64,000 nucleotides of DNA from Escherichia coli 042. Lineage in GTDB: Bacteria; Pseudomonadota; Gammaproteobacteria; Enterobacterales; Enterobacteriaceae. The stretch lies in the NCBI RefSeq assembly GCF_000027125.1, contig NC_017626.1. One strand, given 5' to 3'. Position numbers and translations under genes: made by a program. Numbering within the stretch: the stretch's first letter is position 1; each line of letters starts with the position of its first letter. The notes beneath the pieces are model-generated. The model had not been told where the DNA came from. It did no database searches and was given only the letters and a program-made list of their open reading frames with translations. This document shows, piece by piece, positions 31,329 to 32,248 of the stretch.

Positions 31329-31568
31329 CTACATTTGATGCTTTTTATCTCTTAAAGATTCATAGATCTGTTGACAAGTCACTCCTGCGATGTAGCGTTC
31401 GTCAGCAATTTCAGCATAAAGCTGAGCTTCTGCTGCAATATCTCCGAGCATGTTGGTGAGCATTCCTTCGGCGGTTTTGGTTGTTTTGCCTCTGACGGCA
31501 GCGGCAAGATCTGCGGTATGCTTCGCTGCGTCAAGGCGTATGGCATATTTTTTTGCTTCGGCACGCAA
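31329..31568 (-). CDS. rzpQ: Rz-like i-spanin, C-terminal coiled-coil part; upstream frame open to ~31766 but without ATG/GTG/TTG start or membrane anchor
   Basis: ORF-track entry starts at TTG; the same frame reads [62 protein letters not shown] upstream with no canonical start. Confidence 0.55.
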
Positions 31569-31633
31569 CTGGTTAACACTATCAGACAGATAAGCAGCCC
31601 TGGCAGAAATTTCAGCAGATTTCTGTTGCGCAT
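31379..31633 (-). CDS. rzoQ: Rz1-like o-spanin lipoprotein embedded in the +1 frame of Rz
   Basis: [23 protein letters not shown] lipoprotein signal with lipobox, Pro-rich mature part; ORF track gives a GTG-extended version 31379..31651. Confidence 0.65.
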
Positions 31634-31699
31634 CTTTAACAGCCTCATCACGGGCTATAGTTCGCCCCTGTTCAATTATTCGAGCAGCAAATTGAGCAT

Positions 31700-32248
31700 T
31701 TACCTCTTGTGATAATGCGGCACTATCCCCCAGCAGGTTAATGCGCTCTCCTGGTCACGACGAATAACCTGACCGTAACAGTTATTTGAACGAATGCGGC
31801 AATCGCGTCCGCCATCCTTAATCCACCAGCGAATCGCTTCGCATGCACCTTTACGATCACCAGCATTCAGCCGCTTATAAAACGTCGACGGGAAACACTT
31901 ACCGGGGCCAATGTTATAGGGACAAAATGACGCGATACCCGCTTTTTGTGGTTCGGTCAGTGGTACTTTAATATTGCGCTCCACCCATGCCAGCGCCTTA
32001 TCACGCTCAATGGCGTTGACCTGGTCGCATTTTTCCTTCGACAGTTTCATATTGGGAAAAACGGTTTTTCCATCCACCACTGTGGCACCCCGACAGATGG
32101 TCCATATGCCAGAACCATCGCGGTATGCCATTGTGTGGTTACCTTCTTTTTCGTCCAGAAACTGGTCAAGTATCTGAGGAGCAGATGCGCCAGCACCAAT
32201 CAGCGCCAGAACGGCAGCCGACAGGCCGTATCTGATTTTTGTGTTCAT
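31700..32248 (-). CDS. rrrQ: endolysin, lysozyme with N-terminal signal-arrest-release-like segment
   Basis: 182-aa [33 protein letters not shown]...; position after holin and ydfR. Confidence 0.9.

Follow-up and report, generated by a model that had tools for sequence, protein, structure and literature searches.

The locus described here raises the question of how an Rz-like frame behind a phage endolysin gene can have neither a start codon nor a membrane anchor while the Rz1-like lipoprotein gene embedded in it is intact, and whether this represents a new type of spanin or the remains of a known one. It lies in a 64,000-nucleotide stretch of Escherichia coli 042 DNA (the window, to which all positions refer) in which the Qin site is occupied by a lambdoid prophage that is nearly complete; the window aligns collinearly, at 99–99.6% identity, to the full-length prophage that E. 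coli W has at this site. The Qin cryptic prophage of E. coli K-12 is far less complete than that of the window, which has the genes for head, tail, terminase, integrase and excisionase; the chromosomal flanks share about 98.3% identity with K-12, and 21 kb of prophage structural genes have no K-12 counterpart. The lysis cassette is encoded on the minus strand at 31200–32900 in the order S21-type holin gene, ydfR, rrrQ endolysin gene and rzpQ/rzoQ, identical to the order in K-12 Qin (essD/essQ, ydfR, rrrQ, rzpQ/rzoQ, cspI). The holin gene (32561..32776, minus strand), of the essD/essQ type and phage 21 S-like, is intact and encodes 71 aa with an MKSM dual-start motif (Pfam PF04971 Phage_holin_2_1, E 4.4e-34), 100% identical to EssD of E. 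coli W over 71/71 residues. Between holin and endolysin genes, an intact ydfR (32245..32556, minus strand; DUF1327, 103 aa; Pfam PF07041, E 1.1e-53) encodes a protein 100% identical to YdfR of E. coli W; in the sequence ATGA, the ydfR stop and the start of rrrQ overlap. With an S21-family holin (PF04971, “Bacteriophage P21 holin S”) followed by a putative SAR endolysin of the lysozyme family, the cassette would be of the phage 21 pinholin/SAR-endolysin type; the N-terminal segment of the endolysin (19 residues) is weakly hydrophobic and Gly/Ala-rich, with a Kyte-Doolittle (KD) mean of 1.67.

At the end of this cassette, translation and the open reading frame (ORF) list yield an i-spanin pseudogene, the rzpQ remnant, at 31329..31754 (minus strand). 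A previous sequence-only reading of the locus had the frame open from about 31766 and overlapping the last 22 or so codons of the endolysin; frame and overlap are both real, but the frame opens at 31754, following a TGA stop at 31757..31755, and it shares 55 nt, i.e., about 18 codons, with the 3′ end of the endolysin ORF. Down to its end at 31329 the frame comprises 141 codons with the whole periplasmic domain kept, RzpQ residues 36–165 being retained at 31329..31721 (stop included) and preceded by out-of-context codons. As that reading had stated, neither a valid start nor a transmembrane (TM) segment is found in the frame: past the stop at 31755–31757, no ATG, GTG or TTG is met until the TTG at 31568, the ORF beginning at this TTG (31329..31568) encodes 79 aa, and no hydrophobic segment occurs, the best 19-residue KD mean being 0.61. 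In contrast, the TM segment of intact K-12 RzpQ (IFMVIFLVLSGFIVGNVWS, residues 4–22) reaches a KD mean of 2.18. The remnant belongs to the periplasmic-domain family Pfam DUF2514, matching profile positions 38–160 of 161 (E 1.4e-25) as compared to 3–160 in the intact protein, and tblastn of the E. coli W RzpQ against the window covers residues 34–165 only. Hence, the family domain of an i-spanin is present, whereas the N-terminal TM anchor and an own start codon at the endolysin stop are missing. The intact RzpQ orthologue is assigned to PHROG 312 (“Rz-like spanin”, E 4.3e-57).

The embedded gene, in contrast to the frame surrounding it, is undamaged, as had also been recognized from the letters of the DNA. 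rzoQ (31379..31633, minus strand) is read in the +1 frame and encodes a putative o-spanin lipoprotein of 84 aa with hydrophobic residues 6–24 and a lipobox LTSC (regex match) ending in Cys23; a GAGG is located 9 nt upstream of its ATG. The predicted protein is exactly the one known in public sources as RzoQ and described there as a putative Rz1-like lipoprotein of the Qin prophage, and it matches PHROG 11621 (Rz-like spanin, E 1.9e-8). With regard to annotation, the K-12 and E. coli W records that were examined lack rzoQ in their RefSeq annotation, and on an ENA metagenome scaffold carrying the locus (L006) the gene caller picked the 84-aa RzoQ ORF (PF28595), unlike the NCBI call on a second record (L005, GCA_049816985.1).

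For identifying the lesion, the region was compared with intact cassettes. An indel at the endolysin–Rz junction had been suspected and an alignment with K-12 rzpQ/rzoQ proposed for finding it. This alignment gives a clean answer and bears the suspicion out: window positions 31250..32300 are identical to K-12 MG1655 at all 1,051 positions, and the sole difference is one 108-bp gap, with the junction at 31722..31723 (alignment to K-12 and comparison with E. coli W) and TAACCTGCTGGGGGATAGTGCCGCATTATCACAAGAGG as junction k-mer of the deletion allele. Since this single gap interrupts an otherwise 100% identical alignment, the missing start and anchor are not a chance matter. In K-12, the missing block starts with AACAGTGAATCAGATATTCATGGTG and finishes with AACGTGATGC; it takes in the end of rrrQ (last two codons and stop) and the beginning of rzpQ (GTG start and codons 1–35). 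Accordingly, the window differs from K-12 by lacking 108 bp (rrrQ stop, rzpQ start and RzpQ residues 1–35) and by an RrrQ of 182 instead of 177 aa, while K-12 RzpQ/RzoQ (RZPQ_ECOLI, RZOQ_ECOLI) show 100% DNA identity on both sides of the deletion and an identical RzoQ. In the intact K-12 cassette, the stop of rrrQ (177 aa) and the start of rzpQ (165 aa) overlap as GTGA. Compared to the E. coli W prophage (window 17341–56494), the 108-bp gap is the sole structural difference besides indels of 1 bp and 6 bp. Moreover, a megablast search of 5,426 complete E. coli genomes with 31250..32300 returned many matches at 100% identity, and every match listed is split into two or three pieces, the two-piece matches being 108 bases longer than the query. 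Both junction flanks were found in 1,502 complete genomes and, among the matches listed, are always about 208 nt apart, as in K-12. The 108 bp are contained in K-12 and E. coli W and, among complete E. coli genomes, in at least about 1,500.

The same gap alters the preceding gene. rrrQ (31700..32248, minus strand; ORF, Pfam PF00959 over residues 33–167) stays in its own frame because 108 is a multiple of three, and seven new codons are read before a TAA at 31700. The resulting endolysin of 182 aa has the tail VPHYHKR, replacing the EQ of the K-12 terminus ...CWGIEQ, and its residues 1–175 are identical to those of the 177-aa RrrQ of E. coli W (tblastn). RrrQ matches the solved chains of RrrD (4zpu) and the phage 21 lysozyme R21 (3hde), and this similarity stops at about residue 173–177, placing the new tail outside the fold; the endolysin itself is probably unaffected by it. 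Another variant, a 174-aa RrrQ ending in ...CWG, occurs on 38 contigs.

The previous reading of the locus would have fallen if this i-spanin family did without a TM anchor. The opposite is the case, as N-terminal TM segments are present in K-12 RzpQ and in the homologues of phages Tritos, N15, Skarpretter, KLER1-1 and Bas97. tblastn of K-12 RzpQ against phage records gave 40 records, each covering at least 80% of the 165-aa protein. Tritos and PhiR42_1 show 99.4% RzpQ identity over all 165 residues, and 2H10 and mEp460_ev081 (about 89% identity) as well as N15 gp55 (59%) belong to the same DUF2514 i-spanin family. In the lysis cassettes of these five phages the i-spanin gene lies directly downstream of the endolysin gene, which it overlaps, and contains an embedded +1 lipoprotein gene. 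Five phage homologues at 29–99% identity were inspected (Tritos, N15 gp55, Skarpretter gp57, KLER1-1 gp35 and Bas97), of which KLER1-1 gp35 is annotated as i-spanin with an annotated o-spanin inside. All five genes overlap the endolysin stop, and all five proteins have an N-terminal hydrophobic segment (17-residue KD mean 1.6–2.9) with a W-x-x-R-x-W-x-x-[KR]-W-x-x-R-D-like motif just after it. An embedded +1-frame lipobox ORF with a conserved PLPS...Q...CSP[ST]CSE-like core is likewise found in 5/5. Against these homologues the window copy is beheaded: the deleted RzpQ residues 1–35 hold the TM anchor together with the conserved juxtamembrane stretch WSDRGWQKKWAERD, in which the intact protein shows the motif as W-S-D-R-G-W-Q-K-K-W-A-E-R-D. 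This Trp/Arg-rich motif of DUF2514 i-spanins and the lipoprotein core extend across hosts from Escherichia to Pararheinheimera (L011–L015, L001).

Taken together, these results are best explained by a natural, lineage-specific 108-bp deletion allele of a Qin-type lysis cassette, that is, by prophage gene decay and not by a new spanin type, a reading to which we assign a probability of roughly 0.9. Its consequences can be predicted from phage lambda, where the last genes of the lysis cassette specify a type-II inner-membrane protein with a helical periplasmic domain and, in the +1 frame of its gene, a lipoprotein of the outer membrane (PMC6139136, PMC5295617). RzpQ and RzoQ are designated putative spanins by their architecture, their position in the cassette and the annotation of their families (PHROG 312, PHROG 11621). 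Their likeness to lambda Rz/Rz1, an embedded two-component spanin, is one of architecture (PMC6139136, PMC5295617), RzpQ, which matches Pfam DUF2514 only, probably belonging to a different sequence family from lambda Rz. In lambda Rz, the N-terminal TM domain is the membrane anchor and can be replaced by an artificial one, and the start-codon mutant M1K is lysis-defective (PMC5295617, PMC6139136); a defect in either subunit blocks lysis, and the cells end as spheres enclosed by the outer membrane (PMC5295617, PMC6139136). By analogy, the window allele would be functionally similar to a lambda Rz null, by loss of start or TM domain, in combination with a wild-type Rz1.

In the intact cassette, RzpQ starts with its type-II anchor (residues 4–22), followed by the motif and a periplasmic helical domain whose coding sequence embeds rzoQ in +1. 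The deletion has taken away codons 1–35 of RzpQ along with the start of rzpQ and the stop of rrrQ, and has left rzoQ unchanged. Lacking an i-spanin at the inner membrane, a periplasm-spanning RzpQ–RzoQ complex could not form, and RzoQ would be left as an orphan outer-membrane lipoprotein, inert for spanning. When the cassette fires, holin and endolysin should degrade the wall while the outer membrane stays undisrupted, and, as with Rz or Rz1 mutants of lambda, fragile spherical cells would result whose lysis is blocked or delayed. The predicted failure at the last lysis step follows from the lack of start and anchor for the i-spanin when read by the lambda paradigm. The otherwise nearly complete Qin-site prophage is thus predicted to be spanin-defective and, in the window, also tail-defective, which bears on phage release. 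Beyond annotation and the prediction of a lysis-impaired prophage the allele has little significance: it is a routine inactivation of a known gene pair and not novel in kind, and under rzpQ, rzoQ, rrrQ and ydfP no literature on it was found.

Decay of rzpQ is seen in other strains as well. In one case an IS1 insertion splits the gene (L016, NZ_CM130729.1 580523–583057), a frameshift allele with a 123-aa product (MLKLLLEYIEQG...) is found on 81 contigs, and another allele with replaced N-terminus encodes 122 aa (proteins of the other rzpQ and rrrQ variants: P0018, P0026 and P0003). Such independent lesions (IS1, the frameshift on 81 contigs, other N-terminal truncations) might suggest that loss of the i-spanin has been selected because a cassette that leaves the outer membrane undisrupted kills less readily or serves the host in some other way. 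This would also fit with the sparse damage in the window prophage, where among the 56 E. coli W prophage proteins compared by tblastn only two correspond to broken genes, rzpQ and the tape-measure gene. However, recurrent lesions are equally expected from neutral decay of a widespread resident prophage, and the deletion allele resides on essentially one near-identical haplotype, which suggests a single event followed by clonal spread. Selection is hence considered improbable. Slightly less credit still is given to its more specific form, in which anchor loss would be a taming step that keeps holin, endolysin and RzoQ and gives up outer-membrane rupture, with RzoQ or the read-through endolysin being beneficial to the host and the recurrent rzpQ lesions being the signature of this process.

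The remnant itself might still be expressed, from the ATT at 31742 or the TTG at 31568, as a soluble protein of 137 or 79 aa with retained or new function. The frame is indeed open over 141 codons with the entire periplasmic domain, and the NCBI annotation of L005 calls the remnant a 137-aa DUF2514 CDS with an ATT start (3507–3920 in L005, corresponding to window 31329..31742). This CDS is regarded as an annotation rescue and not as evidence of expression, though in view of it a soluble fragment might be translated at a low level. A product devoid of signal and TM segment would remain in the cytoplasm, apart from RzoQ and the periplasm, whereas i-spanin function in lambda needs membrane anchoring. 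In addition, the ATT lies inside the translated rrrQ ORF, no obvious Shine-Dalgarno sequence precedes ATT or TTG, and the open frame is inherited sequence, identical to K-12. A functional soluble fragment is thus quite unlikely, and with gene decay as the preferred reading, the rzpQ of this lineage calls for annotation as a pseudogene and not as a 137-aa “DUF2514 protein” with an ATT start. Likewise, the 182-aa “lysozyme” should be annotated as a read-through product.

The idea that the gap might be a sequencing or assembly artefact or an edit of the window, the real genome having an intact junction, was first prompted by empty junction searches. The junction 54-mer occurs 0 times in the 5,426 complete E. 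coli genomes and 0 times in a phage collection of 50,697 records, and the deletion junction had no match in GTDB representative genomes, JGI metagenome contigs and IMG/VR. An artefact might also be suspected from a gap length that is an exact multiple of three and from the breakpoints, where microhomology and direct repeats were looked for and none were found. In contrast, two independently produced records share the exact junction: the NCBI assembly L005 is 100% identical to window 28700..35248 (6,549 bp), and the ENA metagenome scaffold L006 shows one mismatch to the window. In a large protein collection, several accessions correspond exactly to the 182-aa read-through endolysin, which is found on 86 public contigs; L005 and L006 are two of these places. 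Because of the identical junctions in L005 and L006 and the endolysin on 86 contigs, the deletion allele is natural, and the artefact idea, to which we give hardly any weight, was dropped. Relative to intact orthologues, the locus carries a lesion that removes essential parts and is reproducible in independent records, as characterizes a decay allele.

Least credible of all is a ribosomal slip by −1 where rrrQ ends, on the run G-GGG (31731..31727), which would fuse the SAR endolysin to the RzpQ periplasmic domain and let the endolysin N-terminal domain supply export and anchor: the Rz frame is indeed −1 relative to rrrQ and has no stop within the overlap, and re-pairing is possible at the GGG glycine codon, but there is no canonical X-XXY-YYZ heptamer, the G run and the open −1 frame also exist in the intact allele and hence are no new adaptation, and the fusion would lose its anchor when the SAR domain leaves the membrane, as SAR domains do upon activation in the endolysins of phages 21 and P1. 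Fusion by a programmed −1 frameshift was accordingly rejected for want of a slippery heptamer and in view of the same sequence in the intact allele.

Besides the lysis cassette, several other positions of the window prophage deviate from E. coli W. The tape-measure gene (minus strand) has lost 1 bp in a C run at 17943, where GGCCCCCACC of E. coli W reads GGCCCCACC, and the 853-aa gene is thereby split into ORFs of 730 aa (15736..17928) and 161 aa (17829..18314). The exact 161-aa fragment is present on six other public contigs; as two of the six are just 97–98% identical to the window over 4.4 kb, this frameshift has either arisen repeatedly or been spread by recombination. In or near the same gene, a cluster of small indels and a stretch of about 220 bp that could not be aligned are located at 15832..15944 and 17121..17341, and the tape-measure protein is 88% identical to that of E. 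coli W over residues 124–853; the divergence of this region suggests mosaic exchange. The prophage exonuclease gene bears an in-frame 6-bp deletion (GCCAGA) at 47721.

Within 31329..31770, scanning with Rfam gave no RNA family. Elsewhere in the window, matches at gathering score were obtained for an IS009 sRNA, two cspA-type thermoregulator leaders (upstream of cspI and cspB), the sok antitoxin RNA and DicF (5682..5880, 30727..31112, 33514..33906, 40752..40923 and 46375..46426), as expected for a Qin-type prophage; the sok antitoxin RNA adjoins hokD.
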